Positions 1-51,744 of a stretch of 64,000 bases of DNA are shown here, piece by piece. Source of the stretch: Escherichia phage vB_EcoM_Maryam; sequence record PQ799574.1. One strand, 5' to 3'. Position numbers and translations under genes: made by a program. The stretch's first letter is position 1, and the number at the start of each line of letters is the position of its first letter. Below the pieces are notes generated by a model, which saw nothing but the letters and a program-made list of their open reading frames with translations, searched no databases and was not told the origin of the DNA.

Positions 1-1
1 A

Positions 2-73
2 TTGCCTGACTCTACTGAGTTCTTTAAAGAACTTGTGAGTGTTCAACCAATGCCTAATAATATTTTGGATTAA
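2..73 (+). CDS. 3' end of an upstream ORF (partial at window edge)
   Basis: Open frame from window start to TAA at 71-73; no start codon inside window. Confidence 0.25.
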
Positions 74-75
74 AA

Positions 76-318
76 ATGACCAAGCGTAAAGAATATATGG
101 AGGCTGCTGAAAAGGCAGTCCGTGAATTAGCAATAGCTTATTATAATGAACATGGTAAATTTCCTGATAGATACAGCGTGCTTAAATCTGCTTTAACTCG
201 TTCATATAAAAATATGCTATCAGAAGTAAGTGATATTATATACAAACATAAAGAACAAACGGGCCAAAGTCTTGATTACGACGAGACTTTTAAACAAGTA
301 CTAGGAATTAAGGAATAA
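76..318 (+). CDS. hypothetical early protein upstream of nrdC
   Basis: ORF track 80 aa; packed in same-strand early gene array. Confidence 0.5.
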
Positions 319-319
319 T

Positions 320-583
320 ATGTTTAAAGTATATGGTTATGATAGCAACATTCATAAATGTGTGTATTGCGATAATGCAAAACGTCTTTTGACCGTGAAG
401 AAACAGCCGTTTGAATTTATCAACATTATGCCGGAAAAAGGTGTTTTTGATGATGAGAAAATCGCTGAGCTTCTGACTAAACTAGGTCGTGATACTCAAA
501 TCGGCTTGACAATGCCTCAGGTATTTGCTCCTGATGGAAGTCATATTGGTGGATTTGACCAACTGCGAGAATATTTTAAATGA
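320..583 (+). CDS. nrdC: phage thioredoxin/glutaredoxin NrdC
   Basis: 87 aa, sequence MFKVYGYDSNIHKCVYCDNAKRLL with CVYC redox motif; recalled T4 NrdC. Confidence 0.9.
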   Translation: MFKVYGYDSNIHKCVYCDNAKRLLTVKKQPFEFINIMPEKGVFDDEKIAELLTKLGRDTQIGLTMPQVFAPDGSHIGGFDQLREYFK

Positions 584-795
584 TGCTCGAAGGAACTGAC
601 TATATTCATGATTACCGCGGAAGCGCGGTATATGTAGGTGATGAAGTTGCAGTTTATTATGGGTATGGAACTTTGATGACAGCCAAGGTTATTCAAATTA
701 AAAATAATCGTGCTAAACTTGAAGTTTATTATTCTAATGGTGAAAAGTCTATTTCTAAGTGGAAATACGGTGATTGCATGGTCAAACTGGGGTAA
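580..795 (+). CDS. hypothetical protein
   Basis: ORF track 71 aa; stop/start overlap with nrdC. Confidence 0.5.
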   Translation: MMLEGTDYIHDYRGSAVYVGDEVAVYYGYGTLMTAKVIQIKNNRAKLEVYYSNGEKSISKWKYGDCMVKLG

Positions 796-797
796 AT

Positions 798-968
798 ATG
801 ATTTACGATATTAATGTAGCAAGAGCTCCGTCAATGGTTACTATTCCTGCTGAAGAACTAGATCGTCTTCATAAAATTGAAGAACTTCTTTGGGAAATTG
901 AATGTGACCTGCCATCAGGACTAGAATCCTGGATTGATTATGAAGAACTTAATAAGCTTCGGGGTTAA
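798..968 (+). CDS. hypothetical protein (start moved to first ATG after upstream stop)
   Basis: ORF track 774..968; ATG at 798 follows upstream stop. Confidence 0.4.
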   Translation: MIYDINVARAPSMVTIPAEELDRLHKIEELLWEIECDLPSGLESWIDYEELNKLRG

Positions 969-1072
969 ACCTTGGTGGGCGGCTAGATGGGAAACTGTAG
1001 AGCCAGAGCCGGAAGAACCGGTTTACACTGATGAAGAAACAGTATATAATGAACCAACGATAAATGACTTAA

Positions 1073-1576
1073 TTGATATGGAGATGGGACATGATTACAG
1101 TAGATAAGTGGTTTAGAATTAATCGTGCTGATACAGGGCTGTGTAATTACTGGCCGGAACTTAGTGCAGGTACTGTCTTTAAAGTTCGTGAACTTGCAAA
1201 AGAATGTGAAGATGATATAGAGCCTGATACTGGAATTATTGAAATTGAACTTTCCGACGGAAAGATTATTAATATCTATGATAAGCCAATTACGTATTGG
1301 TGCTTATGGAATACTGAATCAGTAGAAAATGGTGAAATCGAGGAAGTTGTAGAGCGAACTAATCAAGTTGTTCAGAAGCCTAAAGCTGATTTTCAAGGTG
1401 AACGTATTTCATACGCATTAGCTAAATTAGCTGCGCAAGAAAATAACGATGGCTATGAAGGTAACCTGATGCAAGCTGCGGCAGAATATATTGAATGGCT
1501 TGAAACCCAAATTTCTTTTTCTGACCAAAAGATTCGGCAATATAAGCGATTGAATCAAATGTTTTACAATACTTGA
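1073..1576 (+). CDS. hypothetical protein between nrdC and gene 49
   Basis: ORF track 167 aa; start uncertain (several in-frame ATG). Confidence 0.5.
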   Translation: MIWRWDMITVDKWFRINRADTGLCNYWPELSAGTVFKVRELAKECEDDIEPDTGIIEIELSDGKIINIYDKPITYWCLWNTESVENGEIEEVVERTNQVVQKPKADFQGERISYALAKLAAQENNDGYEGNLMQAAAEYIEWLETQISFSDQKIRQYKRLNQMFYNT

Positions 1577-1587
1577 AAATAATAAAT

Positions 1588-1618
1588 ACCCTTATCTATT
1601 TAAGGTAAGGGTTTTATT
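1588..1618 (+). terminator. stem-loop (ACCCTTA / TAAGGGT, 7 bp) followed by TTTATT, directly before gene 49 ATG
   Basis: Inverted repeat 1588-1594 / 1606-1612 read from sequence; could act as terminator and/or translational control hairpin for gene 49. Confidence 0.45.
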
Positions 1619-2092
1619 ATGTTATTGACTGGCAAATTATATAAAGAAGAAAAACAGAAATTTTATGATGCACAAAATGGTAAATGCTTAATTTGCCAAC
1701 GAGAACTAAATCCTGACGTTCAAGCTAATCACCTCGACCATGACCATGAATTAAATGGACCAAAAGCAGGAAAGGTGCGTGGATTGCTTTGTAATCTCTG
1801 CAATGCCGCAGAAGGTCAAATGAAGCATAAATTTAATCGTTCTGGCTTAAAGGGACAAGGTGTTGATTATCTTGAATGGTTAGAAAATTTACTTACTTAT
1901 TTAAAATCCGATTACACCCAAAATAATATTCACCCTAACTTCGTTGGAGATAAATCAAAGGAATTTTCTCGTTTAGGAAAAGAGGAAATGATGGCTGAGA
2001 TGCTTCAAAGAGGATTTGAATATAATGAATCTGACACTAAAACACAATTAATAGCTTCATTTAAGAAGCAGCTTAGAAAGAGTTTAAAATGA
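1619..2092 (+). CDS. 49: endonuclease VII (Holliday junction resolvase)
   Basis: 157 aa, MLLTGKLYKEEKQKFYDAQNGKCLICQ... matches recalled T4 gp49; zinc-binding Cys cluster. Confidence 0.95.
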   Translation: MLLTGKLYKEEKQKFYDAQNGKCLICQRELNPDVQANHLDHDHELNGPKAGKVRGLLCNLCNAAEGQMKHKFNRSGLKGQGVDYLEWLENLLTYLKSDYTQNNIHPNFVGDKSKEFSRLGKEEMMAEMLQRGFEYNESDTKTQLIASFKKQLRKSLK

Positions 2093-3906
2093 CAATTGAA
2101 AAAGAAATTGAAGGATTGATTCATAAAACTAATAAAGACCTTTTAAACGAGAATGCTAATAAAGATTCTCGTGTTTTTCCAACTCAACGGGACCTTATGG
2201 CTGGTATTGTGTCTAAACACATTGCCAAAAATATGGTCCCGTCTTTTATTATGAAAGCGCATGAAAGCGGAATTATTCATTTCCATGATATTGATTATTC
2301 CCCTGCTCTTCCATTTACTAATTGTTGTTTAGTAGATTTAAAAGGAATGCTTGAAAACGGATTTAAGCTAGGTAATGCGCAGATTGAAACTCCTAAATCA
2401 ATTGGCGTTGCTACTGCAATTATGGCACAAATTACTGCGCAAGTTGCTTCCCATCAATATGGCGGAACGACTTTTGCGAATGTAGATAAAGTACTTTCTC
2501 CTTATGTTAAACGCACCTATGCAAAACATATTGAGGATGCAGAAAAATGGCAAATCGCTGATGCGTTGAATTATGCCCAGTCTAAAACAGAAAAAGACGT
2601 ATACGATGCATTCCAAGCTTATGAATATGAAGTAAATACTCTTTTTAGTTCAAACGGACAAACTCCTTTTGTAACAATTACATTTGGTACGGGAACTGAC
2701 TGGACTGAACGAATGATTCAGAAAGCAATTCTGAAAAATCGTATTAAAGGTCTCGGTCGTGATGGGATAACTCCTATTTTCCCTAAGCTTGTTATGTTCG
2801 TCGAAGAAGGTGTTAATCTTTATAAAGACGATCCGAACTATGATATTAAACAGCTTGCTCTAGAGTGCGCAAGCAAAAGAATGTATCCTGACATCATTTC
2901 GGCTAAGAACAATAAAGCTATTACTGGTTCATCTGTTCCTGTTTCTCCAATGGGTTGCCGTAGTTTCTTGAGCGTATGGAAAGATTCGACTGGTAATGAA
3001 ATTCTTGATGGACGTAATAATCTTGGTGTTGTAACACTGAATCTTCCTCGTATCGCATTAGATTCTTATATTGGAACACAGTTCAATGAACAGAAATTTA
3101 TCGAATTGTTCAATGAGCGAATGGATTTGTGTTTTGAAGCTTTGATGTGTAGAATTAGTTCCTTAAAAGGAGTTAAAGCAACTGTTGCTCCTATTCTTTA
3201 CCAAGAAGGTGCATTCGGGGTTCGTCTTAAACCTGATGACGACATAATTGAGTTATTTAAAAACGGTAGAAGTTCAGTGTCTTTAGGATACATTGGTATT
3301 CACGAATTGAATATTCTTGTCGGTCGTGATATTGGACAAGAAATTTTAACTAAAATGAATGCTCATCTTAAACAGTGGACTGAAAGAACCGGATTTGCTT
3401 TTAGTTTATATTCGACTCCTGCTGAAAACCTTTGTTATCGCTTCTGTAAACTCGATACAGAAAAATATGGAAGCGTAAAAGATGTTACAGATAAAGGCTG
3501 GTACACTAACAGTTTCCATGTTTCAGTAGAAGAAAATATTACTCCGTTTGAAAAGATTTCTCGTGAAGCGCCATATCATTTCATTGCGACAGGTGGTCAC
3601 ATTTCTTATGTTGAACTTCCTGATATGAAAAATAACTTAAAGGGTCTTGAGGCCGTATGGGATTATGCTGCACAACATTTAGATTATTTTGGTGTTAACA
3701 TGCCGGTAGATAAATGTTTTACGTGTGGAAGTACCCATGAAATGACTCCTACTGAAAACGGATTTGTTTGTTCTATCTGTGGAGAAACTGATCCTAAAAA
3801 GATGAACACAATAAGAAGAACATGTGGTTATTTGGGAAATCCGAACGAACGCGGATTTAATCTCGGTAAAAATAAAGAAATCATGCATAGGGTTAAACAC
3901 CAATGA
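2089..3906 (+). CDS. nrdD: anaerobic ribonucleotide reductase large subunit NrdD (intron-less)
   Basis: 605 aa continuous ORF; glycyl-radical C-terminal region (RRTCGYLG) and Cys cluster; ATGA overlap with gene 49. Confidence 0.95.
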   Translation: MTIEKEIEGLIHKTNKDLLNENANKDSRVFPTQRDLMAGIVSKHIAKNMVPSFIMKAHESGIIHFHDIDYSPALPFTNCCLVDLKGMLENGFKLGNAQIETPKSIGVATAIMAQITAQVASHQYGGTTFANVDKVLSPYVKRTYAKHIEDAEKWQIADALNYAQSKTEKDVYDAFQAYEYEVNTLFSSNGQTPFVTITFGTGTDWTERMIQKAILKNRIKGLGRDGITPIFPKLVMFVEEGVNLYKDDPNYDIKQLALECASKRMYPDIISAKNNKAITGSSVPVSPMGCRSFLSVWKDSTGNEILDGRNNLGVVTLNLPRIALDSYIGTQFNEQKFIELFNERMDLCFEALMCRISSLKGVKATVAPILYQEGAFGVRLKPDDDIIELFKNGRSSVSLGYIGIHELNILVGRDIGQEILTKMNAHLKQWTERTGFAFSLYSTPAENLCYRFCKLDTEKYGSVKDVTDKGWYTNSFHVSVEENITPFEKISREAPYHFIATGGHISYVELPDMKNNLKGLEAVWDYAAQHLDYFGVNMPVDKCFTCGSTHEMTPTENGFVCSICGETDPKKMNTIRRTCGYLGNPNERGFNLGKNKEIMHRVKHQ

Positions 3907-4373
3907 ATTACGATAGATTTTATCCATGTGATTTTGTGAATGGCCCTGGATGCAGGGTCGTTCTTTTCGTTACAGGTTGTTTGCATAAATGCGAAGGGTG
4001 TTATAATAAATCAACATGGAATGCTAGAAATGGTATTCCATTCACTGGTGAAACACTAGAACAATTGATTGAATGTTTGAATAATGATTATATAGAAGGA
4101 TTGACTATAACCGGAGGTGACCCTCTCTATCCTGATAATCGAGATGTTATTCATTGCATTGTTCAAACAGTAAAAAATCTTTATCCCAATAAAAGCATTT
4201 GGTTGTGGACAGGATATAAATTTGAAGATATTAAACAACTAGAAATGCTTAAATATGTTGATGTTATTATTGATGGGAAGTATGAGAAAAATCTTCCGAC
4301 TAAAAAGCTATGGCGAGGATCAGATAATCAGCGGCTTTGGTCAAATACCGATGGGGTGTGGAAACATGATTAA
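3903..4373 (+). CDS. nrdG: anaerobic RNR activating protein NrdG (radical SAM)
   Basis: 156 aa; CxxxCxxC motif (CLHKCEGC); ATGA overlap with nrdD. Confidence 0.9.
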   Translation: MNYDRFYPCDFVNGPGCRVVLFVTGCLHKCEGCYNKSTWNARNGIPFTGETLEQLIECLNNDYIEGLTITGGDPLYPDNRDVIHCIVQTVKNLYPNKSIWLWTGYKFEDIKQLEMLKYVDVIIDGKYEKNLPTKKLWRGSDNQRLWSNTDGVWKHD

Positions 4374-9929: not shown

Positions 9930-9951
9930 GCTTTATACGGAGTTTGATATA

Positions 9952-11108: not shown

Positions 11109-11368
11109 CTTTTGATGAATTTAAAAATGTTATGATGAGTCAGCATTTTGAATGCGAAGTAAAAGATGATATTGGTCATAAAGAAATTATTGAATATTGG
11201 TTTGAACCGCTAGAGGTTGAAGATAATTGTATTAAAAAGGTTACGGTCTGCACTGACTGGGCTGTATCTTTTAACTTCAACATTTTAGATAATGACACAC
11301 CTAAATCATTACGAGATATGGCTGTATCTTGTATTAAGGATGCATATTGTGAAGTTTTCGACATTTGA
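11105..11368 (+). CDS. hypothetical protein between 47 and 46
   Basis: ORF track 87 aa. Confidence 0.5.
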   Translation: MTFDEFKNVMMSQHFECEVKDDIGHKEIIEYWFEPLEVEDNCIKKVTVCTDWAVSFNFNILDNDTPKSLRDMAVSCIKDAYCEVFDI

Positions 11369-11555
11369 CATTAATGATGAATTCATAGCAAATATTGATT
11401 ATACCGAAGAAGATTCTAGATATGTTGGAATAATTTATATTACATCAAAAACAGCACAAGGTGTTGTTTGCATGGCTGAATTTGATGAATACTTTTTAGA
11501 TTATGATGATATGATAGAATGGTCTAAAAGATACATTAAAAGGAATCTTTTGTGA
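11340..11555 (+). CDS. hypothetical protein between 47 and 46, start uncertain
   Basis: ORF track 11292..11555 overlaps previous ORF; ATG 11340 is alternative start. Confidence 0.4.
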   Translation: MHIVKFSTFDINDEFIANIDYTEEDSRYVGIIYITSKTAQGVVCMAEFDEYFLDYDDMIEWSKRYIKRNLL

Positions 11556-13234
11556 AGAATTTTAAACTAAACCGAGTTAGGTATCAAAATATAATGTCAG
11601 TAGGTGGAAATCCTATTGACATTCAATTAGATAAGGTTCAAAAAACTCTTATTACTGGACGAAATGGCGGTGGTAAGTCTACTATGCTAGAAGCCATCAC
11701 ATTTGGGCTTTTTGGTAAGCCATTTCGTGATGTAAAGAAAGGTCAATTAATAAACAGCACAAATAAGAAAGAACTTTTAGTTGAACTGTGGATGGAATAT
11801 GATGAGAAAAAGTACTATATCAAAAGAGGACAAAAACCAAACGTTTTCGAAATCACCGTTAACGGTACACGTCTTAATGAATCTGCCAGCAGTAAAGATT
11901 TCCAAGCAGAATTTGAACAGCTTATCGGAATGTCATATGCCAGTTTCAAGCAGATTGTTGTCCTTGGTACAGCAGGGTATACCCCTTTCATGGGTTTGTC
12001 GACCCCTGCACGAAGAAAGCTTGTGGAAGACCTGCTTGAGGTAGGAACATTAGCTGAAATGGATAAGCTTAATAAAGCACTAATACGTGAATTAAATTCG
12101 CAGAACCAAGTGCTTGATGTTAAAAAAGATAGTATTATCCAACAAATTAAAATATATAATGATAACGTTGAACGCCAGAAAAAATTGTCTGGTGACAACC
12201 TTACTCGTCTGCAGAATATGTATGATGATTTGGCAAAAGAAGCTAGAACGCTAAAATCGGAAATAGAAGAAGCTAATGAAAGATTAGTTAATATTGTTTT
12301 AGATGAAGACCCGACTGATGCATTTAATAAAATCGGTCAAGAAGCATTTTTAATTAAATCAAAAATTGACTCGTATAATAAAGTCATTAATATGTATCAT
12401 GAAGGTGGATTATGTCCAACCTGTTTGTCACAATTAAGTTCCGGTGATAAAGTTGTTTCTAAAATTAAAGATAAAGTTTCTGAATGTACGCATTCATTTG
12501 AACAGCTTTCAACACACCGTGATAATTTAAAAGTTCTTGTTGATGAATACCGAGATAATATTAAAACCCAGCAGTCGTTGGCAAATGATATTCGCAATAA
12601 AAAGCAATCTCTAATCACGACGGTAGATAAAGCTAAAAAAGTTAAAGCGGCTATAGAAAAAGCATCTTCTGAGTTTATTGACCATGCTGATGAAATAGCA
12701 CTGCTTCAAGAAGAACTTGATAAAATTGTTAAGACAAAAACTAATTTAGTAATGGAAAAATACCACCGAGGAATTTTGACTGATATGCTCAAAGATTCTG
12801 GTATTAAAGGTGCTATTATTAAAAAGTACATTCCATTATTTAATAAGCAGATTAACCATTATCTTAAAATAATGGAAGCGGATTATGTGTTTACATTAGA
12901 TGAAGAATTTAATGAGACAATTAAATCCCGTGGTCGTGAAGATTTTAGTTATGCTTCATTTAGTGAAGGTGAAAAGGCACGAATTGATATTGCTCTTTTA
13001 TTTACTTGGCGTGATATTGCTTCTATCGTATCTGGTGTTAGTATTAGTACATTAATTCTTGATGAAGTGTTTGATGGGTCATTTGATGCCGAAGGTATTA
13101 AAGGTGTAGCTAATATTATAAATTCAATGAAAAACACTAATGTTTTTATAATTTCGCATAAAGACCATGACCCGCAAGAATATGGTCAGCATCTTCAAAT
13201 GAAGAAAGTTGGTCGATTTACTATAATGGTTTAA
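11552..13234 (+). CDS. 46: recombination endonuclease subunit gp46 (Rad50-like ATPase)
   Basis: 560 aa; Walker A GRNGGGKST; coiled-coil middle with CPTC zinc hook; GTG start. Confidence 0.9.
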   Translation: MKNFKLNRVRYQNIMSVGGNPIDIQLDKVQKTLITGRNGGGKSTMLEAITFGLFGKPFRDVKKGQLINSTNKKELLVELWMEYDEKKYYIKRGQKPNVFEITVNGTRLNESASSKDFQAEFEQLIGMSYASFKQIVVLGTAGYTPFMGLSTPARRKLVEDLLEVGTLAEMDKLNKALIRELNSQNQVLDVKKDSIIQQIKIYNDNVERQKKLSGDNLTRLQNMYDDLAKEARTLKSEIEEANERLVNIVLDEDPTDAFNKIGQEAFLIKSKIDSYNKVINMYHEGGLCPTCLSQLSSGDKVVSKIKDKVSECTHSFEQLSTHRDNLKVLVDEYRDNIKTQQSLANDIRNKKQSLITTVDKAKKVKAAIEKASSEFIDHADEIALLQEELDKIVKTKTNLVMEKYHRGILTDMLKDSGIKGAIIKKYIPLFNKQINHYLKIMEADYVFTLDEEFNETIKSRGREDFSYASFSEGEKARIDIALLFTWRDIASIVSGVSISTLILDEVFDGSFDAEGIKGVANIINSMKNTNVFIISHKDHDPQEYGQHLQMKKVGRFTIMV

Positions 13235-13248
13235 TTTATAAGAGATTA

Positions 13249-13272
13249 TGCTTTAATTTATTAGAGTATAAT
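13249..13272 (+). promoter_or_regulatory. middle-type promoter (MotA box TGCTTTA plus TATAAT)
   Basis: TGCTTTA 13249-13255, TATAAT 13267-13272. Confidence 0.4.
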
Positions 13273-13289
13273 CTCTATGGAGGAAAAAC

Positions 13290-13478
13290 ATGGAATATTC
13301 AACTGGACAGCATCTATTAACTATTCCTGAAATAAAACGATATATTCTGAGAAATAATTTTTCTAATGAAGAGCATATAGTTACTGAATCTATGCTTAGG
13401 AATGCATTTAAAGCAGAATATACAAAAATAATGTCCAATAGAAATGAAGCTTGGACTGTTACTGATTATTATGACTAA
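13290..13478 (+). CDS. hypothetical protein (gene 45.2-like)
   Basis: ORF track 62 aa; position between 46 and rpbA. Confidence 0.5.
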   Translation: MEYSTGQHLLTIPEIKRYILRNNFSNEEHIVTESMLRNAFKAEYTKIMSNRNEAWTVTDYYD

Positions 13479-13487
13479 AGGTGTATT

Positions 13488-13877
13488 ATGACTAAAATTA
13501 CTGTGAATTATACTGTTGATGTAAAAGATATTCAGCCAAAACACGTGCGTTCTGAATCAAATCCACAAAACCAAAATAAAATTCGTCGCGCATGGGTTTT
13601 GTCTCTTTCTGATAACGCAATGGAAGTTATTCAGAATAAAATTAAATCTGCACCTGCTCGTCATGCGTATTATGAAGCTATCGATCGTGAAGTAAGTAAT
13701 AAATGGATTGAACTAATGCGCAAACATACTACAGAATCCCTAAACGCCGGTGCTAAATTTATTATGACTTCATGTGGTGAACGCCTTGAAGATGATTATT
13801 GTGGTAATGCAGATGAACGTCTAATTGTTGCTGCTCAAATTGTTGCGGAAACAATTGCGGCTGATTTTAATCGTTAA
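13488..13877 (+). CDS. rpbA: RNA polymerase-binding protein RpbA
   Basis: 129 aa, position immediately upstream of gene 45 start; recalled T4 size. Confidence 0.6.
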
Positions 13878-13932
13878 TTGCTTTATTAAATTAGTTATAA
13901 AATTAAATCTCATTTGAATTGAAGGAAATTAC

Positions 13933-13992
13933 ATGAAACTGTCTAAAGATACTACTGCTCTGCTTAAAAATTTCGCTACTATTAACTCGTAA
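13933..13992 (+). pseudogene. 45: sliding clamp gene 45, 5' fragment only (19 codons then TAA)
   Basis: MKLSKDTTALLKNFATINS matches recalled gp45 N-terminus; remainder of the ~228-aa gene absent. Confidence 0.8.
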
Positions 13993-14502: not shown

Positions 14503-14652
14503 TTACTGCATGACTGTGATAACTGTCATGATAACACGTTGAATTCCGAACGCAAGAAGACCTCCTGCTACGGCTGGAACAACGCCTAAACCAGCCAGTA
14601 AAATGCTACCAGATACTAATGCAGCGCTTGTAATACCAATGAATGGACTCAT
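14503..14652 (-). CDS. small membrane protein (49 aa) downstream of gene 52
   Basis: Minus-strand ATG overlapping gene 52 stop; hydrophobic MSPFIGITSAALVSGSILLAGLGVV... Confidence 0.4.
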   Translation of the reverse strand: MSPFIGITSAALVSGSILLAGLGVVPAVAGGLLAFGIQRVIMTVITVMQ

Positions 14653-15977
14653 TTGATTTCCTCTAAATCTTTGGTGTATTCGGTAACTACATCAGTAGTT
14701 TTCCAATATTCGTTTTCTTCTTTTTTAGCTTTAGCTTCTTCAGCAAGTTTCTTTGCTTCATCGGAAGTCATATGAAAAATATTCATTCCAACTAGTTTAT
14801 CAACATAAGAAGAATACATATCGATTTTCGAAAGTTCTTCGGTCAGTTCTTTACGAGTTTTACCCTGTACAACAATTTCACCTGAAATTACTTTCTTAAT
14901 GAAATGTGCCTTGGCAAAGGCTAAACGAAAAGCTGATTCAGTTTCTTTAATTTTGTTATCAATTCGTTTTTGGACATAAGTTTTACGAACTTCAACGAAG
15001 TCTTTAATTAAATCAACTACGTTATCGTAAACTTGTAGTTTTCCTTTCTCATTAATAACCGTAATATTCTGAGAACGACGCTCAATCAACCCAAAGTCTT
15101 TCATAATTTTTGCATGGCGTTCTTCTTCATTATCGCTCAAAGAATATTCTTTACGGAATTTAACTTTGAATCCAAAACCGTGCTCACCGCAAGCATCATC
15201 CCATGTAATGAAGCCTTTATCTTCAAGTGGGTCTAAGATTTTACTCACATAAGTTTCACGATCATACTTATATGGAATCTCAGTGATATGCATTTGAGTT
15301 CGTGAAGTAAACTTATATGTTCCGCGAATTTCATATTGACCATCAATCTCAACGACTTCACCACGAAATTCTGGGAATTCTACCTTCGGTTTAGTTACTT
15401 TCTTTCCTTGAAGAGCTTGCAGTACAGCTTTCTTGACAGAAGAAACACTATGAGGAAGAATGTAAGTTGCATAACCAGTTGCAATACCGGAAACGCCATT
15501 AAGAAGAACAGTAGGAATAATAGGTAAATAGAAAGCAGGCGGAATGTGTTCTTTATCTTGATGTACCGGAGCATATTCAGTATCTTTATATACGTTATAG
15601 AAATTTTTACTTACACGAGCAAAAATATAACGACTTGCTGCTGCTTTTTGGACGGTACGAGAACCAAAGTTTCCTTGACCATCTAACAGAGGAAAATTAT
15701 TATTCCAAGTGTTAGCCATCAAAGCACCTGCGTCTTGTGCAGAGTTTTCGCCATGGTGATATCCAAGGTCCGCTACACCACCTGCAATAGAAGCAAGTTT
15801 GTGAAACTTATCTTTATTTCCTCGTGCCAAATCAAGAGCTCGAGCAATAACAAATCGTTGAACTGGCTTAAATCCATCAATCATATTTGGAATGGCACGA
15901 TTTTCAACCGTGTACATAGCATAAGCCAATGCTTCATTATCAATGATACTTTTTAAATCGCGATTATTCAGTTGCAT
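14649..15977 (-). CDS. 52: DNA topoisomerase II medium subunit gp52
   Basis: 442 aa; MQLNNRDLKSIIDNEALAYAMYTVENRAIP... typical topo II breakage-reunion domain. Confidence 0.95.
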   Translation of the reverse strand: MQLNNRDLKSIIDNEALAYAMYTVENRAIPNMIDGFKPVQRFVIARALDLARGNKDKFHKLASIAGGVADLGYHHGENSAQDAGALMANTWNNNFPLLDGQGNFGSRTVQKAAASRYIFARVSKNFYNVYKDTEYAPVHQDKEHIPPAFYLPIIPTVLLNGVSGIATGYATYILPHSVSSVKKAVLQALQGKKVTKPKVEFPEFRGEVVEIDGQYEIRGTYKFTSRTQMHITEIPYKYDRETYVSKILDPLEDKGFITWDDACGEHGFGFKVKFRKEYSLSDNEEERHAKIMKDFGLIERRSQNITVINEKGKLQVYDNVVDLIKDFVEVRKTYVQKRIDNKIKETESAFRLAFAKAHFIKKVISGEIVVQGKTRKELTEELSKIDMYSSYVDKLVGMNIFHMTSDEAKKLAEEAKAKKEENEYWKTTDVVTEYTKDLEEIK

Positions 15978-19687: not shown

Positions 19688-21865
19688 TTAGGCCGCAAGG
19701 GCCTTCATAGTTTTAGCGATTTGGGAAACTTCATCATCACTTAAAGAGTTGCGATATCCGATGAAGTCGGAAACAATACGGAATTTCTTGGTAAACTCAG
19801 CAACCATTTTATCACTGTTTTTTGAAGCATTATTTGATAATACATCAAAAAGATTAGTTACTGTCCAGATGTCATGACCGATGGTATCTTTTCCACCATT
19901 AAAATATACACCGCGCAATGAACTAACTATATTAGCGAGTCGTGTATATTCTTCAGAAACTTCATCTGTACTGAAGTACTTCATCATAAAATCTAGTTCA
20001 GGATACTTGATAATTTTATCAATATATCGTTGAGCTGAACTTGAATAACCTACATACTTATCATAATCTACATCATCAAAAGCATCTACATATAAATCAC
20101 GCAAAGCTTCAAAAATACATTGGCACTGACCGAGTTCTTTTACCTTTTTCTGTAAAAGCGGACGAATAACATAAAATTCATTAATGCCAATAAGATTAGC
20201 CATACGAATCAAAATATTCATAGATGGATGACAAAGAGATGTAGTACCATCCATAGAGAAAATATCAGAACGATGCATATACGCTACATAACCAGTAATT
20301 TCATCTGCTTCTGATGTGAGCGTAAATAATTCCTCTTTTTCCCATCGCCCATCTTTAATTTCAAACTTAAATGCTGTAGCAGCTTTAGGACGAGGAGCTT
20401 TACTTTTAACTACCTTTGGAATATAGCTTTTAACTAAAGCTTCAATTTCTGACAAATAATGAATGTTAACTTCATCACTTTCAAACATCGCCATAATATC
20501 AGGAAGTAAATCAATCTGCGATTCTACTTCCGGATTAATAAACAGAAGACGCTCATTGTGATGAATATTCAAAGTGTTATTAAATTCACTATCATCTAAC
20601 GCGTGTGCTAATCCACGGACAATATTAACACGATTTTTAATATTATCAATAACGATATTAATTTTTGTTGCATTAATACCAAACAGACGATAACTTGATG
20701 CAACGGCTGAAGTTTCATGACTTTGCTTAATGCGCTTCAGTCGAGGGTCAAGATTTACTTCATACACAACTCCTGCATTACATAACTTACTATCAGGTTC
20801 AAACATGCTTTGCATCTTCTTATATGACAGATTTTTAGTCGTAAATTTGACTGAATTACTAATCATATAATCTCGAGCAGAATACCCCATCTTCATCAAT
20901 TCACGATATGTATGACGGGGAGATGTGGATTCTTTAAATCGTTTTACATCTTCATTAAATGCTTTCTCACTGAGTTCTTTAACTCGTTCAATGATATTTT
21001 TACGAGTGCGATCATCTAGTGAAAGAGCCTCGCGAGATGGAGCAATATCAAGTGAACCCATTGGAAACTTAATGTAATTCACTTCATTGCGAATGCTTAG
21101 CCAGTTACGGTCTCTAATAACACCATCGATAGGATAAACAATACCGCCATAGATAGCATATAATCCACCACGATCAGGCCAGTATCTTTCTGGATTTACA
21201 CCATAATAATCATCAAAATCCGGAAAATAATCAATTTCACGGTCAAGACCATTAATGATAGCCAAATCTTTGAACGGTCGCATGATATAAGAAACTTCAT
21301 AAGCAAAGTTTCTAAAGTCTTTTTCTTCAACTGGAACTACGATTTCAATACCAGTTTTATCATCTGGACCCATTTCTTTTACGAATGTAGGTTTAATCTG
21401 TGGACCATCACCATCCATGTAAGCTACATAACCACGAATTTCACCTTTATGATACGAAGTAATACTAAACGTATCAGTATAACTAAACGGAGATTTAGAA
21501 CCTAAACCAAATCCGCCAATAAAGTCATTAGATTCAGCTTTAGATGAACTGAAGTATGAATTATACAACCCAGGAGAATTATCATCACCTTGAATATCAA
21601 AATCACTCATACCCGGACCAAAATCTCGACAAACAAATCGCGGGTCTAAACGTCCAGGAACTTGTATGATAAATTTCTCTGGATTTCCATTAAGTGCATG
21701 AGCATCAATCATGTTAGTAATCAATTCACGGACTACTGCGCGAATCTTGTTTGTATACAAATCAGACGACAGAATTTTAAATACTTTAGGAGATGCTGTG
21801 ATGCTAAATGCTTTCGATTTAGAACCATTACCAAGAATTGTTTCTTTTTCAGTGGTGATAATCAT
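19688..21865 (-). CDS. rIIA: rIIA protein
   Basis: 725 aa, [25 protein letters not shown]...; GHKL-type ATPase-like N-terminus. Confidence 0.9.
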
Positions 21866-21875: not shown

Positions 21876-22079
21876 TTAATTCATATTACGCTTAATAACT
21901 TCAGCAACTTCTAGTAGTTCATCTTTAGTTGCGGTGTCGGATTGAATTTTATCTCTAATATCTTTAAAGCGGTTTTTAAATTCTTCAGCTTCTCCCATAT
22001 CGAAAAAGCGTTGAATGATTCTATATTCTCGATGAACTGCTTTATCAAAAAGTTCTAAATTTACTTTATATGATTTCAT
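21876..22079 (-). CDS. hypothetical protein (rIIA.1-like)
   Basis: ORF track 67 aa. Confidence 0.5.
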
Positions 22080-22104: not shown

Positions 22105-22134
22105 ATTATACCACATCCTTGTGGTAAAGTAAAC
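22105..22134 (-). promoter_or_regulatory. T4-type early promoter (GTTTAC ... TATAAT) for rIIA.1/rIIA
   Basis: Reverse complement reads GTTTAC ~18 nt TATAAT. Confidence 0.45.
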
Positions 22135-23954
22135 TACTGGCTCATCCATTCTTTACGAAGGTCAGCATTATCTCCCATGAGCATTTCAAAAAGCTCTTTC
22201 CAGTTCTCAGGAAGTTTAACAACATCATATACTGGGTTTTGAATCATCTCACGATATTCAGATTTTTCCAAAGAGCCAAGTCCCTTAATATAACGGATGC
22301 TATGTTTAGGTAGAGCATCTTTGGCACTCTCATATTCAGCGACTGTATAAAACCATTCTTGTTTTTTACCGACCTGAGCGATGATTACAGGAGTTTTGAC
22401 AAAGCGAATTCGTCCTTGCTCAAACAATTCTGGCCAATTACTAAAAAATCCAAGCAGAGAAGGATAAATGCTTCCTAGACCATCATGGTCAGCATCAGTC
22501 ATAATAGCAATATTATGATAATTCAAGTTTTCAGCTTTTTCACCGAGAACTAATCCAGTGATTGCGCAAATATCAAATAGTTCTTTGTTTTTAAGCATAT
22601 CAGCATATGACATACCCCAACTATTAAGAACTTTACCACGCAATGGATAACCACCATGAAGTTCTTTATCACGAACATCAATAAGATATCCGATAGCCGA
22701 ATCACCCTCAGTCAAGAAAAGAGTCGTGTCAGCATCTTTACCACAAAGATTCGCTTTAATATGTTTATGAACCTTAGCTTTAGAAGCCTTTTTAGCTGCT
22801 TTTGTTTCTGCTGCTTTTTCTGCTGCCAATTTACGAGCCAAAGCAGCTTCAATAATCGGCATTAGAATTGCTTCATTATTTAGAATAGCACGTGAAATCT
22901 TTTTAGCATCAAGCTGAATATGACTACGGATTTCACCAAATGGAGAAGTCAAACGCTCTTTAGTTTGAGAATCAAATCGCATGTTTTTCATATCACGAAC
23001 AAACATAACGATAGTCAAACATTCTTTAACACGTGCTTTAGTTACATCAATTTTGAATTTACGTTTGATTTGTGGAATAAGGTCTTCACAAATATCATCC
23101 ATAACACAGTCAATGTGATGGCCACCATTCTTAGTGTGAATGTTATTCACATAAGTTAATTGACGAAATCCATCCGGTGAACGACCAACCGCAATAGAAC
23201 AATTTTCTTGTTCTTGAACAATAGCATGTTCATCATACTGTCGTGCATATTTCTTAAAATTGCCCTGAACCTTTTTACCATTAAAGGTAAATTGAATATC
23301 AGGATAAACAACAGCAAGTGTCTGGAGACGATCTAGTGTAATATCAAGATAAACTTGGGACAGCTCATTAGTTTCAAATGACATAAAATCAGGAATGAAA
23401 GTAACACGTGTTCCTTTCCATTTTCCAGGAATATCTTCCCATGATTTATTTTCCATGCCATTTGAACAACGAACTACAATATTATTTTGACCATCACCCG
23501 TTTCACCAACAAACATCACAGAAAAAATGTTTGTCAAACTAGAACCAACACCATTCATACCGCCGGTGACACGTTCTTTATCATCACCAAAGTTACCACC
23601 CGCTTTTGGAATAGTCCAAGCAGCAACTGGACCAGGAATTTCTTCACCGGTAGGTGTTTTAACCATCGCTTGTGGAATACCACGACCGTTATCTTCAACT
23701 GTTACTTGATTGTTTTTAATAGTAACATTAATTTTATTTGCGAATTTAAACTTAGTACGAATACCTTCATCGACTGAGTTATCGATAATTTCATCAATAA
23801 GCTTAACAAGACCAGGTACATACTGAACACTTTCCCATTTACCAAACAGAAAGCGCTCATGCATTTCATTAGCAGAAGAGCCAATGTACATGCCACTACG
23901 CTTTTTGATATGTTCAATATCGCTCAGAATTTTAATTTCATTCTTAATCATCAC
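22134..23954 (-). CDS. 39: DNA topoisomerase II large (ATPase) subunit, single fused gp39 (T2-type, no gene 60 split)
   Basis: 606 aa continuous ORF covering both the ATPase domain and the TOPRIM-containing C-terminal part. Confidence 0.9.
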   Translation of the reverse strand: MMIKNEIKILSDIEHIKKRSGMYIGSSANEMHERFLFGKWESVQYVPGLVKLIDEIIDNSVDEGIRTKFKFANKINVTIKNNQVTVEDNGRGIPQAMVKTPTGEEIPGPVAAWTIPKAGGNFGDDKERVTGGMNGVGSSLTNIFSVMFVGETGDGQNNIVVRCSNGMENKSWEDIPGKWKGTRVTFIPDFMSFETNELSQVYLDITLDRLQTLAVVYPDIQFTFNGKKVQGNFKKYARQYDEHAIVQEQENCSIAVGRSPDGFRQLTYVNNIHTKNGGHHIDCVMDDICEDLIPQIKRKFKIDVTKARVKECLTIVMFVRDMKNMRFDSQTKERLTSPFGEIRSHIQLDAKKISRAILNNEAILMPIIEAALARKLAAEKAAETKAAKKASKAKVHKHIKANLCGKDADTTLFLTEGDSAIGYLIDVRDKELHGGYPLRGKVLNSWGMSYADMLKNKELFDICAITGLVLGEKAENLNYHNIAIMTDADHDGLGSIYPSLLGFFSNWPELFEQGRIRFVKTPVIIAQVGKKQEWFYTVAEYESAKDALPKHSIRYIKGLGSLEKSEYREMIQNPVYDVVKLPENWKELFEMLMGDNADLRKEWMSQ

Positions 23955-24004
23955 TTATCCTCGTTTGGTTTCGGGAATATTATACTCCGGTAATCATAAA
24001 GCTA

Positions 24005-24021
24005 AAGGCCCGAAGGCCTTT
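24005..24021. terminator. AGGCC-CGAA-GGCCT hairpin with flanking T-run
   Basis: Inverted repeat 24005-24018 followed by TTTTATTT. Confidence 0.45.
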
Positions 24022-24290
24022 TATTTAAAACGAATAGTTGAATCCTTAAAGAACAGCCCAGAACATACTGTTCCTTCTACTTTCTGCCCGGTAGGTCCAA
24101 TAGCACGAAATCCAGTATGTTGGAAATCATTTTCAGAGCAACCGAACCAGTTATATCCAGTGATTTCAATATTCGTAAAACCACTTGATGATAAAATTTT
24201 AGTTGCATTATCAGCATCAGTACATCCTACTAAAGATACTGCTAATACTAATGCTGCAATAGAACGATTAATATATTTCATAATTTTCAC
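24021..24290 (-). CDS. putative lipoprotein
   Basis: 89 aa; signal peptide with lipobox LVGC. Confidence 0.5.
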   Translation of the reverse strand: MKIMKYINRSIAALVLAVSLVGCTDADNATKILSSSGFTNIEITGYNWFGCSENDFQHTGFRAIGPTGQKVEGTVCSGLFFKDSTIRFK

Positions 24291-24658
24291 TTAAATTTAA
24301 TGGCTTGAAGAAGACTAATAACTCTCAAGCGACTTCTTTCATCTTTAACTGTAAAGGAAAGAGGGTCACCAGATTTCATAGTGATAGTGCATCCAAAATC
24401 AAAATTTTCGGGAACTTCTTTGAAGAAGTCAAATTCTTCATCATAAATTAGAACATTACTCTGACAACTATGAAGAATTTTTCCATCATTTCCAGATGCT
24501 GTACTAATCATTGTAACATTATGACCTTTCATATCTTCAACGATAAATTCACTAGTCAATATTACAGCATTAATAGAACTATTCCTATTACTAGCAGAAA
24601 GTAGAAATTTCTGTTCTTCACCTTCACGAATGCAATATTTCTTACCAATTTTAAACAT
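24287..24658 (-). CDS. hypothetical protein
   Basis: ORF track 123 aa. Confidence 0.5.
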   Translation of the reverse strand: MFKIGKKYCIREGEEQKFLLSASNRNSSINAVILTSEFIVEDMKGHNVTMISTASGNDGKILHSCQSNVLIYDEEFDFFKEVPENFDFGCTITMKSGDPLSFTVKDERSRLRVISLLQAIKFK

Positions 24659-31434: not shown

Positions 31435-32037
31435 TTATAGATTAAATCCTTCAAAATCAAGAGTATAGATAGTGTATGTTGAGTACTTTTTGTACTCATA
31501 TCTATCTGCAATTCTAAATACACTTCCAGCTGGTATCATTACTTCTTGTTCATCTGAAACTAATTCCATATTACGATAACGATGACTATCCGGAAACTTA
31601 AAGTTTGGATTGTATTCTTTACAGCGTAGAGCTTTTATAGCATACTCCTGGAAATTGAATACCATAGGAGCTTTGAATTCAAAAATAACTTGTGTGTTAT
31701 ACTCTAAACCAGAAGCAAAATGTAGAGCTATATTTTTATCATATGAAGCTGATACGACTTTATCAAATGTAATAATATCAATTCCTTGATTTAATACTTG
31801 TTTAGTCTCAGCTGGAACACCTCTCCAAAGAGGTTTATCGTTTGGAACCAAACGAGATTTGATTATTTCATTTAACCAAGAATGATCGTCTGGTTTATTA
31901 GTAATACAATGAATTAAAAGTTCAATTTCAGATAAATTAAACCCTTCAGAAAGTAATTCTTCACGAATAGAAGCACGCACCGATGCATCCATTGATTTTA
32001 TTTTAAAATCTTTTAGTTGCATTACCGAGTATTTCAT
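31435..32037 (-). CDS. modA: ADP-ribosyltransferase ModA
   Basis: 200 aa; R / S-x-S / E-x-E ART signature (LWRG, SAS, EQEVMIP). Confidence 0.85.
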   Translation of the reverse strand: MKYSVMQLKDFKIKSMDASVRASIREELLSEGFNLSEIELLIHCITNKPDDHSWLNEIIKSRLVPNDKPLWRGVPAETKQVLNQGIDIITFDKVVSASYDKNIALHFASGLEYNTQVIFEFKAPMVFNFQEYAIKALRCKEYNPNFKFPDSHRYRNMELVSDEQEVMIPAGSVFRIADRYEYKKYSTYTIYTLDFEGFNL

Positions 32038-32657
32038 TCAACTACCTCAATATCATAAACTTTAAATGTTCCAAATGAATCGTGTAATTTTTCTTTTGAA
32101 ATAGAAGTTATTCTATACTTTCCAATTGGAATCATCCATTCCTGTTCACGCACAATCATCATTAAGTTATCAGTACGCTCTGAATCTAATCCATCAGTAT
32201 CTTCATACGTGTACTTAAACTCAGTATTAGGAGAAGAAAGTATAATATCGCTGATATGGTCAGAATAATTAAAAGCTTTATTAGTTTTTAAGCGAAGTAT
32301 TATTTTAGTAAAATATTCAGCGTAAGAAAAAGAACATGCTGTGAGCAAACTAGTAGTAAATGAATCTACTCTATTCGTTGAAAACACTTCTCCAACTTGT
32401 AAATCTTTAATAAGTTCTTCTGTTGATTTTGATATACCACGATATAACTGATAAGGTGATTTAGTTAAATGCTTTTTAATGATTTTATTCAACTGCCGAT
32501 GAAGAGCTTCATTCTTTTTGGCTTCCATACATTGCCAAAGAACTGACTGCTCAAAGTCAGTAAATTTTTCACAGACCTTTTTATACATATCATATTGAAA
32601 ATCGACGCTTTCAGCTTTTATAGATAACTGTTCAACATCTGCAAGATTAATAATCAT
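32034..32657 (-). CDS. modB: ADP-ribosyltransferase ModB
   Basis: 207 aa; ART signature (LYRG, EQEWMIP); tandem with modA. Confidence 0.85.
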   Translation of the reverse strand: MIINLADVEQLSIKAESVDFQYDMYKKVCEKFTDFEQSVLWQCMEAKKNEALHRQLNKIIKKHLTKSPYQLYRGISKSTEELIKDLQVGEVFSTNRVDSFTTSLLTACSFSYAEYFTKIILRLKTNKAFNYSDHISDIILSSPNTEFKYTYEDTDGLDSERTDNLMMIVREQEWMIPIGKYRITSISKEKLHDSFGTFKVYDIEVVE

Positions 32658-32724
32658 GATAGCCTCCGTATACTTCAGAAGCTATCATATCATCGTTAGA
32701 AAGGAAAGTAAACAACTTTTTGAA

Positions 32725-32907
32725 TTATTTTGCCCAGGGAGCCCAGGGCGGAGGGTCAAGATGGTATGAAGCTAGTTCTTCTAGAAGAGCATCTGGGGCT
32801 TCAATTCCATAATTCTGTAATACTATACGGTACTCTTTCTTATAATCACTAGAATCATTCTGGATATTCGTAGAATGATTATCTTCTAACATCTCAAATA
32901 AATCCAT
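32725..32907 (-). CDS. hypothetical protein
   Basis: ORF track 60 aa. Confidence 0.4.
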   Translation of the reverse strand: MDLFEMLEDNHSTNIQNDSSDYKKEYRIVLQNYGIEAPDALLEELASYHLDPPPWAPWAK

Positions 32908-32915
32908 ATTAATTC

Positions 32916-33386
32916 CTAGCGATAAAAACCAAAATGACGATTAGCTTCAGCAATCTTTCTTTCTTCTTCGGACATTCTCCATCGTAGTCCAACATCAAAA
33001 TGAGCCCAGACCATCCTAACAAATGCATTTATATCTTTAATATCTTCAATAATGAATGTTTTACTTTTAGAAGGTTGACTCGCTAATTTAACTTTATCGT
33101 CTTCAAACATGTCAAAAAGACCATATTCATGAGCTCTTTTATAGCCTTTAATAGTTAAAGCTTCAGAAGAAGAAAATGGTGAATCTGTATTCTGCAAAAT
33201 ATCTTCAGTATGCTTTATAATTAGAATAATATTTTCTGGATATTTTCTTTCTTTTATATCTTTAATTAAAATATCCGGATTTTCTGCTAAAGGAATAATT
33301 AATGAGCATTTTTTATCAAGTGTATTTACTGATTTACCTTCTTTAGACATAAATTCTATTGAATAATGTTTTGCTACTTCAATCAT
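32916..33386 (-). CDS. hypothetical protein
   Basis: ORF track 156 aa. Confidence 0.5.
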
Positions 33387-33539
33387 GGGATTTCCTTTTG
33401 CCTACTAATGGACCATCGGGAATTTTGTTTTCCTGGATATATTTCTCATTTTCTTCCATCATTTTACTGCCAATTTTAAGAAGCAAATCCAGTGCTTCAT
33501 TTGCTTTAGCTTTAGCCTCTTCCAGCGTCATATCTTTGT

Positions 33540-33743
33540 TCACGATTTATCCCCATAGATGTCTCTCATCAATTTAAGCGCTGAGCGTTCTAATTTCTTT
33601 TCTTTCTCAGCACTAATCATTGATTTCATCCATTCTTCCGATTCGTTCTGCATTTCTTTATTTGCTTGTTCAACCCAACCATCATCAATGTACATTGAGT
33701 TTGGTCTATTGAACCATTCAAGAATCTTCTTGAGAGCTTTCAT
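33540..33743 (-). CDS. hypothetical protein
   Basis: ORF track 67 aa. Confidence 0.45.
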
Positions 33744-34215
33744 TTATTTTACCTAAAACAATAGTAGGAGCATTGTCAAATTTATGAATTTTTAGCAAAT
33801 TTGGATTTAAATTATTCCATAAAGAGGTAATAAAATATGATAGCGCACTTTCGTCCGTAATTATAAATTTATTTCCTTTATCTATTTTCCAATCATATAT
33901 TGAATCATATGAATAGAAGGATAACGGTTTATTATTATAATATGCTTCAGCAACATCAATATAGTTAGATTTAGTAAATGCTTGAATTGCCATAAATGGA
34001 GAATTTTGTACAGTTTCAATAATTCCGATCTTTTTAAGTTTTATTTCAACATCTTCTGGAATTGGCATTGAAATAAAATCTTCTACTAGATACATGTTAT
34101 TGTCATATCTTTTATCAATCATTACTGCTACTGTAATTGGAACATCCTTGACAAACGCCATACTAATGCTATTGATAGACATTTCAAACAAAATTGCTTC
34201 CATAATTTTCCTCAA
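33718..34215 (-). CDS. hypothetical protein
   Basis: ORF track 165 aa. Confidence 0.5.
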
Positions 34216-34553
34216 TCACAAGATGTAGATGAACAACTAGAATCACAAGAACTTCCACATGAATCGCCCGTCCATACATAAACAGGAACATTTGTATCAT
34301 ATGAATCAGAACTAGACTGTGTTTTCTGTGCATTAGATGATGTAGTAGGTGTTGACCAGCGCCAAGGATTTTTATAATATTCTTGGGCTTCTTCATAAGT
34401 CATAGTAACTGCTTCTACTGTTCCATCTCCCATATAAACATACTCAACTACAGTTAAAGGAAGGTAGTCATTTGAAATAGGAACTACACCTTCTCCAGGA
34501 GTCGTAGAGAAAAAATCCGTAAAGAAACTTTTAAACCAATTAAAGATAAACAT
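34212..34553 (-). CDS. hypothetical protein with Cys/Ser-rich C-terminal tail
   Basis: 113 aa ending [18 protein letters not shown]. Confidence 0.5.
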
Positions 34554-34759
34554 TACAAAAAGCCTCTTTTGAATTCAACTTGTTTATCGCCATAATCATA
34601 TCGAATTTCTGCATTAAATTCAACAGAACCATCTGCGTACATCATAAATGAATGAACAACAACTTCTGTAGACCATGGTTGCAGTTCATATTTCTTCATT
34701 ACATGCCGTGAAATGATAATATCTAAATCTTCATTTGGTTTAATCCAACGATTTAACAT
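34553..34759 (-). CDS. hypothetical protein
   Basis: ORF track 68 aa. Confidence 0.45.
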   Translation of the reverse strand: MLNRWIKPNEDLDIIISRHVMKKYELQPWSTEVVVHSFMMYADGSVEFNAEIRYDYGDKQVEFKRGFL

Positions 34760-34830
34760 AATGCTCTCCTCTATAAGATAATTCTATTATACCATACTCA
34801 TTTTGGAAAGTAAACCGGTAAAATGAAAAA

Positions 34831-34850
34831 AGGACTCCCGAAGGAGTCCT
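34831..34850 (-). terminator. rho-independent terminator downstream of soc (8-bp stem, UUCG loop, U-run)
   Basis: AGGACTCC-CGAA-GGAGTCCT with A-run on plus strand (U-run in minus RNA). Confidence 0.65.
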
Positions 34851-34855
34851 TGAAA

Positions 34856-35101: not shown

Positions 35102-35131
35102 GTAATTCTCCTTTTATTTAAATTACATGAT

Positions 35132-42389: not shown

Positions 42390-43238
42390 TTAATCAACTG
42401 CTATTGGATGAATAGCATTAAACTTATGAAATGCTTCTGATTTTTCTTTGCGCGAAACGCACATGCGAAGAACCTTTAATGGCTCGTCTTCTTCACCCAA
42501 CGATTTTCGTTTTTCAATATTAGAAGTTTTCCAACGAGCTTGCTCTGGAAACTCTCTATTGATTTGCTCAAGCGCTCTATTATGTTTAGAATTACTACGA
42601 ATTGAACTACACCCGCCAGGAGCTTGTGCTTTTCCAGATACAACCAGATATTTGAACAAGGCCAAATGCGGATAACCTTGATTAATTAAATTGAGAAATG
42701 CATACATATCTTCGCACAAATCAATTTTTCCATACCCAATTTGTTCTGTCGTAAGTTTTCCGAGGTCATACCATGTATTCGTGAATCCATATGAATTTTC
42801 ACGATAATTACCCCAAGATGAAGTAATTTTAAAAATTGGTAGGCGAGCATGACCGTGATAATACCCGCAATCCATGGCATCTTCAACGTATTGAATCAAT
42901 TCATAGAACTGTTCACGGGTTAATTGATTGACTTTATCTACACAACGACGGTCATCTCTTTTTCGCATTGAACTCATACGAATAGTAGTATCATCGTCAA
43001 TCATCCAGATTCGTTGACCTGCATACATATCAGTAATTGCTTTACGAGTACCGGCAATTCCGTTTACATCATCAGGAATAGTTATAATTTTAGCTCTAGA
43101 CCCATAGGCATCATAATAAGCTTTTTCTTCATGTTCACGCACTACAATATGGGGTTCATAATCAGTCGGAAACATATCAAGGGCAGAAACTGCCCCGACA
43201 CGCTGATAACTTGGAATTACGAATTGAATCATTTCCAC
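42390..43238 (-). CDS. putative glucosyltransferase at the beta-gt locus (T2/T6-type beta-glucosyl-HMC alpha-glucosyltransferase-like)
   Basis: 282 aa with DDD motif; lies between uvsX and 42; does not resemble recalled 351-aa T4 beta-gt. Confidence 0.5.
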   Translation of the reverse strand: MEMIQFVIPSYQRVGAVSALDMFPTDYEPHIVVREHEEKAYYDAYGSRAKIITIPDDVNGIAGTRKAITDMYAGQRIWMIDDDTTIRMSSMRKRDDRRCVDKVNQLTREQFYELIQYVEDAMDCGYYHGHARLPIFKITSSWGNYRENSYGFTNTWYDLGKLTTEQIGYGKIDLCEDMYAFLNLINQGYPHLALFKYLVVSGKAQAPGGCSSIRSNSKHNRALEQINREFPEQARWKTSNIEKRKSLGEEDEPLKVLRMCVSRKEKSEAFHKFNAIHPIAVD

Positions 43239-50941: not shown

Positions 50942-51718
50942 TTATACTCTTGGACCATATATTGCTCCAACATTTTGCCACGTTGGAGAAGACCCTATAA
51001 CAGCATATCCAGAATCGCCGCCATTGTATTCAGATCCTTGACCACGAATATTACATCTACCTCCTGCGGCGCCTACCTCACCACCGCTTCCGCCATTATA
51101 GATACCGTTCACGGACCCCGATCCAGGCGCATAAAGAGTACCAGCAGTTGCGCCTGATTGCATATCAATAGATCCGCCAGGTGCACCAAACGGACGCCCA
51201 CCACCACCACCAAAGGTTAATCTCATTTGTGAAAAAGGAGAATAATACCCACCGCCACCACCGCCACCACCGGCAGCAATAGCTCCGCCATTATTAATTC
51301 TTAGTCTCCCACCAATATCGTTTTGAATACAATGACCTCCAGCTGAGCCAGGACTATTGCTACCGCCATTACCTCCACGACCATACATCGTTACGCCGTG
51401 TATATTTAACTGAACATATTCATTTGGTGTATCTCCGTACATAAAGAATAAAGGAACATCTTTAGAATATGATACTAAATCACCTGTAATATTAAACACT
51501 ATAGGTGCACTACCTGCCTCAAAACATCTATCTCGGAACCATTGACCATTGAAGTTATGGTCTGCTCCAAGCGTGTGAATTATTTCAACAGATCGACCTA
51601 TCATATTACTCATCCAAAACGGAACGCCCATTCTTAATCTTGCGGCTGCTCCTGCCATCCAATGGTCTCCAGTCTGTGCCAATGCAGAAGTTCCTATCCA
51701 CGGTCCTGCTACTGCCAT
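50942..51718 (-). CDS. 38: long tail fibre adhesin gp38, T2/T6-type with glycine-rich repeats
   Basis: 258 aa from ATG 51718 ([15 protein letters not shown]...), GGAGG SD; poly-Gly runs; ORF track starts at upstream TTG. Confidence 0.8.
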
Positions 51719-51728
51719 ATAAACCTCC

Positions 51729-51744
51729 AAGGGGCCGAAGCCCC
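51729..51744 (-). terminator. GGGGC-UUCG-GCCCC hairpin between genes 37 and 38
   Basis: Identical core to hairpin at 47947-47962. Confidence 0.45.

Follow-up and report, generated by a model that had tools for sequence, protein, structure and literature searches.

An uninterrupted, parental-type gene 39 encoding the large topoisomerase II subunit in the T4-like Escherichia phage vB_EcoM_Maryam

The stretch of DNA analyzed here (hereafter, the window) comprises 64,000 nucleotides of Escherichia phage vB_EcoM_Maryam (PQ799574.1), and its minus strand carries at positions 22134..23951 what is, with very little room for doubt, an uninterrupted gene 39 of the Tequatrovirus (T4-like) type, encoding a 605-aa GyrB/ParE-like subunit of a type IIA topoisomerase. 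The allele found in the window is the parental, uninvaded form of the gene, and the one present in T4 is the derived form. The initial annotation of this DNA had described the gene as “fused”, a term that suits its single continuous ORF and misleads in implying a derived state.

The reading frame was followed directly in the sequence. A single open frame of 606 aa, counted from a GTG codon, was listed on the minus strand at 22134..23954, with one terminal stop codon (TAG, 22136..22134) and no internal ones. Stop codons are expected about once per 14 codons at the base composition of the window, and a run of 606 codons free of them would have a chance probability of approximately 8e-21. The in-frame GTG (23952..23954, minus strand), which opens this mechanically defined ORF, is probably not the start codon. 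The codon directly following it is an ATG (23951..23949), and T4 gp39, the T2 CDS and the T6 protein (PDB 8ylu) all open at this ATG with the residues MIKNEIKIL. Furthermore, a Shine-Dalgarno-like GAGG, a putative ribosome-binding signal, was read at 23959..23962 (minus strand), at a spacing of 7 nt from the ATG and of 4 nt from the GTG. Since the T4, T2, and T6 proteins begin at the ATG and the GAGG lies 7 nt upstream of it, the product of gene 39 almost certainly starts at position 23951 and would consist of 605 aa. Initiation at the GTG (23954), giving a protein of 606 aa, was considered unlikely: this codon is in frame, it is the first start-type codon past the upstream stop, and some database records do annotate a CDS of 1821 nt (e.g., 2447..4267), but the reference proteins of T4, T2, and T6 begin at the ATG and the GAGG is just 4 nt away from the GTG. 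Hence, of the 606-aa ORF that had been proposed initially, the single frame devoid of internal stops was upheld, its length was probably one residue too great, and its location on the minus strand was added. The gene should be annotated as one CDS of 605 aa from the ATG, and there is no recoding event to annotate.

The encoded protein has the domains of the large subunit, in the order GHKL ATPase, transducer and Toprim. The ATPase domain was detected with the Pfam model HATPase_c (aa 48-150, E = 2e-9), and its motifs EIIDNSVDE (aa 54-62), DNGRGIP (aa 87-93), and GGMNGVG (aa 130-136), among which both the N-box and the G-box were found, are encoded within 23544..23792 of the minus strand. The transducer, or second GyrB domain, matched DNA_gyraseB (aa 251-385, E = 1.5e-13) and the QTK loop was present as QTKERL (aa 329-334). 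The Toprim motif TEGDSA (aa 414-419; 22695..22712, minus strand), which holds the catalytic Glu, aligned with type IIA topoisomerase structures, and the acidic motif DADHDG (aa 486-491; 22479..22496, minus strand) is followed directly by the codon CTA for Leu492. The catalytic Glu and the DxD cluster of these two motifs are read in one frame and belong to one uninterrupted polypeptide. A PLRGK motif was also present, and residues 520-605 matched Pfam TOPRIM_C; at E ≤ 0.001, the protein gave no match to the Toprim model of Pfam. The assignment to PHROG 543, “DNA topoisomerase II large subunit”, was obtained with E = 2.4e-295.

Bacterial GyrB/ParE and eukaryotic topoisomerase II, the latter in its N-terminal half, have these three domains in the same order. 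Matches along the full length of the sequence were found with human TOP2B (E = 1.2e-59) and TOP2A (E = 4.4e-59), and also with yeast Top2 and ParE; in comparison with GyrB, the phage protein lacks the GyrB insertion. The partner of gp39, the GyrA-like DNA-cleavage subunit of 442 aa, is encoded by gene 52 at 14649..15977 on the minus strand and agrees with T4 gp52 at 442 of 443 aligned positions, the stop being counted as one of them. Paired, the two proteins would give an A2B2 enzyme of two subunits, as in T2 and T6. The enzymatic activity of the gene 39 product is predicted from its near-identity to characterized proteins, and the literature describes the phage enzyme as one that relaxes DNA and does not supercoil it.

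The locus was then compared with that of T4, which consists of genes 39, mobA, and 60 (NC_000866 2458..5328) and includes a 50-nt translational bypass. T4 gp39 corresponds to residues 1-473 of the window protein, with 466 of 473 residues identical (98.5% aa identity), and the remainder up to the C-terminus is covered by residues 27-160 of T4 gp60 (128/134 identical), clear homology beginning at approximately residue 31. That one ORF covers both T4 genes, as had been claimed from the sequence alone, was thus borne out by the alignment of the two T4 proteins. At the nucleotide level, BLAST aligned positions 24100-22534 of the window with T4 5477-3911 (96.8% identity) and positions 22469-21800 with T4 2793-2124 (99.4% identity), so the coding sequence common to both phages is orthologous on either side of the junction. 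A higher identity to T4 on the 22469-21800 side is what mosaic ancestry around the locus ordinarily produces.

The two alignments break at window position 22534 (T4 3911) and resume at 22469 (T4 2793), so that 64 nt in the window (22533..22470) stand against 1117 nt in T4. These 64 nt (22470..22533, minus strand; codons ~474-494, ENLNYHNIAIMTDADHDGLGS) are the stretch that is swapped for the MobA/bypass cassette in T4, and they are 100% identical to those of T2. The 1117 nt of T4 contain an extra gp39 tail of 43 aa, the mobA pseudogene along with ORF 60.1 of the annotation, an extra gp60 head of 30 aa, a diverged version of the stretch that was deleted, and the coding gap of 50 nt; the window has none of these parts. 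At the Gly codon where T4 reads GGA-UAG, followed by the gap and the landing GGA, the window reads GAT GGT CTA GGA with no gap, Gly491 (GGT) passing directly to Leu492 (CTA). The frame is therefore unbroken through …DADHDG|LGSIYP…, the very site of the 50-nt coding gap in T4.

The components of the cassette were also searched for individually. No MobA homologue was found when the intact MobA of RB55 (272 aa) was compared by tblastn with the whole 64-kb window, the best match having E = 1.4 and lying away from the locus, in agreement with the initial claim that no homing endonuclease is inserted here. The 50-nt bypass gap gave no match on either strand of the window with up to 15 mismatches, and together with the frame running straight through the gap site this confirmed the reported lack of a bypass element. 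The 43-aa gp39 tail and the 30-aa gp60 head produced chance matches only by tblastn (E ≥ 0.3), none of them at the locus, and the cassette DNA searched across the 64 kb gave only matches at chance level.

A closely similar gene is present in T2 (AP018813.1 2447..4264, 1818 nt) and T6 (YP_010067157.1; PDB 8ylu and related entries), which have the single-ORF architecture, the protein length of 605 aa and the downstream neighbors rIIA.1 and rIIA in common with the window. T2 gp39 aligns without gaps and with a single difference, F70L, the genes themselves having diverged at the nucleotide level to 96.8% identity; the junction region of T2 is identical to that of the window. Residues 1-605 of T6 gp39, as present in the cryo-EM structure (PDB 8ylu_C), align with two substitutions. 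This structure of the T6 protein as a single chain dates from 2024, and T6 gp39 and gp52 constitute an active two-subunit topoisomerase (PMC11461880). When the window was aligned with T4 genes 39 and 60 and with T2 gene 39, the check originally suggested for the continuity of the frame, neither an internal stop nor a gap appeared.

The frequency of this arrangement was estimated with a 126-nt probe spanning the junction, at a coverage of at least 80%. The uninterrupted junction was detected in 446 phage records, nearly all with 95-100% identity, and a search with the T4 cassette itself found 43 records, 41 of them at full length, both counts including GenBank/RefSeq duplicates. The closest record in the phage collection was that of phage MLF4 (98.1% nucleotide identity), and several records name the gene “60plus39” or “DNA topoisomerase II large subunit”. 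The uninterrupted gene 39 is thus the majority state in Tequatrovirus, with about nine in ten records. The arrangement had been put forward as a T2-like trait, and the likeness is genuine, T2 having the same arrangement and a protein that differs by one residue; nevertheless, it is not diagnostic, because about 90% of the related records share the uninterrupted junction (446 against 41-43 records, duplicates included).

The difference between the two alleles may be understood from the biology of MobA. In T4 and a minority of its relatives, a mobile cassette carrying the HNH homing endonuclease MobA has replaced 64 nt within the Toprim-coding region, cutting the gene into 39 and 60 and leaving a 50-nt coding gap for the ribosomes to bypass. 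The split of the T4 gene by the insert therefore results in a three-subunit topoisomerase II in T4 and a two-subunit enzyme in the present phage, where the uninvaded allele, judging from its sequence identity, would be translated conventionally as a single polypeptide. The anatomy of the mobile element, including the 64-nt deletion of the parental gene, has been described (Manning & Atkins, bioRxiv 10.1101/2022.08.31.505936), and the layout of the T4 junction in our comparison agrees with it, the 64-nt deletion included. The cassette's own copy of the deleted stretch, termed HomR, is only 67-81% identical to the parental sequence according to the same authors (Manning & Atkins, bioRxiv 10.1101/2022.08.31.505936); its identity to the 64-nt region of the window was 76%. 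As summarized in that preprint (bioRxiv 10.1101/2022.08.31.505936), MobA has been reported to nick the uninterrupted T2 gene inside the stretch that the cassette replaces, after which the cassette is copied into the gene during repair. The 50-nt gap, situated some 20 nt downstream of the position of the nick, is described there as shielding the invaded genome from being nicked again, and ribosomal bypass restores the protein. As the window and T2 have the same 64-nt target, with no difference between them, and the T2 target is reportedly nicked by MobA, the allele described here should be open to cleavage by MobA and serve as a recipient in its homing.

The same arrangement would be expected if an ancestor of the phage had carried the MobA/bypass cassette and had lost it cleanly, e.g., through gene conversion when a phage without the cassette infected the same cell, which would make the uninterrupted allele secondary. 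Tequatrovirus genomes are mosaic, and the 670 nt located 3′ of the junction share 99.4% identity with T4, against 96.8% upstream, which makes an exchange with T4-type phages plausible. “Hit and run” losses of the cassette are moreover known from other clades, although the peptide extensions were kept in those cases (Manning & Atkins, bioRxiv 10.1101/2022.08.31.505936), and in the window nothing remaining of the gp39 tail or the gp60 head specified by the cassette was found. A scar is likewise absent, the 64 nt being of the parental type, 100% identical to T2, and not the 76%-identical HomR copy. The 3′ part of gene 39 is, furthermore, no closer to T4 (339/345) than to T2 (341/345). A perfect conversion would look the same as a locus that was never invaded, with its function unchanged, and nothing in the sequence demands such a history, to which we gave only a very small probability. 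If it were true, the 99.4% identity downstream would be the trace of an exchange and the locus would be a Tequatrovirus example of the homing cycle in its loss phase.

A continuous ORF could also arise in the assembly itself, if a T4-type insertion had been collapsed or lost from the consensus in the source assembly, and other parts of this assembly are visibly untrustworthy. The window and T4 are not colinear: positions 1-13988 correspond to T4 48638 to 32548 in reverse, positions ~14375-49106 to T4 163604 to 168903 and then 1 to 30862 in the forward direction, and positions 49101-64000 to T4 162031 to 147590 again in reverse. When mapped on T4, a block of 35 kb (motA′, 52, rIIB, rIIA, 39 … 43, regA, 62′) is consequently inverted relative to both flanks. 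At the left joint (13988/13989), codon 19 of gene 45 lies head-to-head with approximately codon 25 of motA, and the right joint (~49101-49106) falls within gene 62 and arn.2, so that genes 45, motA, 62, and arn.2 are all truncated. About 1.7 kb comprising the start of gene 62, gene 44, and most of gene 45 are absent, as are about 1.2 kb with arn.3, arn.4, and most of motA. Positions 1-13988 are 100% identical to positions 32001-45988 of PV290051.1 (Escherichia phage vB_EcoT_BCU-2), a record of 46.9 kb which is labeled “complete genome” but covers no more than part of a T4-like genome; where the window breaks off to a different place, this record carries on into gene 45 in the normal way. The inverted 35-kb block looks like a mis-oriented contig of the source assembly and not like a biological rearrangement.

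These apparent mis-joins leave the finding on gene 39 untouched, since the nearest joint is 8 kb or more away from the gene, and many complete genomes are colinear with the entire stretch in which it lies (15-35 kb, 100% of the length). A collapse would, in addition, have had to take out precisely the cassette and put back the 64 parental nt, neither more nor fewer, in frame, and the same junction occurs in 446 records (duplicates included). An artefactual origin of the continuous frame was therefore regarded as scarcely credible, and the uninterrupted gene 39 was retained as the parental, uninvaded allele.

Other differences from T4 in the window fit the broader impression of a T2-like phage. 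The I-TevII intron was absent from nrdD of the window by comparison with T4, as were the T4 genes mobC, mobB, and segA from the window as a whole, and the segF position differs in length (425 nt in the window and 697 nt in T4). The sites of these T4 mobile-element differences were placed by the same comparison at 2624-2627, ~3903-3926, 8694-8722, 35139-35564, and 42300-43247. A beta-glucosyl-HMC-alpha-glucosyltransferase gene (42390..43238, minus strand; PHROG 842, E = 2e-89) replaces the b-gt gene of T4, and gp38 (50942..51730, minus strand; 262 aa; PHROG 2056, E = 6e-109) is of the adhesin, T2 type, unlike T4 gp38, which is an assembly chaperone of 183 aa.

The intact single-ORF form of gene 39 is already known and matters little in itself. 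Huang and co-workers reportedly established in the mid-1980s (biochemical work of 1985) that the single 39 protein of T2 and T6 is equivalent to the 39 and 60 proteins of T4; the T4 gene 60 paper dates from 1988, and the explanation by MobA homing is credited to Bonocora et al. in 2011. A comparative survey of the MobA/bypass element followed in 2022 (Manning & Atkins, bioRxiv 10.1101/2022.08.31.505936). The value of the present result lies in annotation, and the phage may be listed within Tequatrovirus as free of MobA and presumably sensitive to it.

The surroundings of the gene were also inspected. Downstream of gene 39, as in T4 and T2, rIIA.1 (21876..22079, minus strand; Pfam T4_RIIA1, E = 1.4e-33) comes next, and rIIA (19688..21865; 725 aa) follows further on in the same orientation, within a segment colinear with T4 1..2793 at 98.2% identity. 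Between the stop codon of gene 39, which it adjoins, and rIIA.1, a strong early-promoter-like sigma-70 site (22105..22133, minus strand) was recognized by its match to the consensus (TTTACT, a spacer of 17 nt, and TG-n-TATAAT; 10 of 12 positions), which could be an early promoter. A scan for promoters and terminators around gene 39 detected sites no more numerous than those in shuffled sequence.

Upstream of the gene, a possible middle promoter of the MotA type was read at 23979..24006 (minus strand), with TTTAGCTTTA, which approximates a MotA box, a 12-nt spacer and TATAAT at 23984..23979; the likeness is to the T4 middle-promoter consensus, and the site is a candidate that the sigma-70 scan did not report because it has no -35 hexamer. 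A hairpin (AAAGGCC-TTCG-GGCCTTT; 24004..24021, minus strand) was read directly 3′ of the stop codon of the 39.1 homologue and was not called a terminator by the scan because its T-run is weak.

The 39.1 homologue itself (24021..24290, minus strand) has 86-89 aa, in comparison with the 65 aa annotated in T4, shows a lipoprotein-like N-terminus (…LAVSLVGC) and belongs to PHROG 902, which has no assigned function. Between the 39.1 and 39.2 homologues, an ORF of 123 aa (24287..24658, minus strand) was found that has no counterpart in T4, where positions 5657-5661 span the site. This ORF falls in PHROG 622, also with no assigned function, and its N-terminus weakly resembles proteins of the goF family. 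At the same position, T2 carries an ORF of 105 aa.
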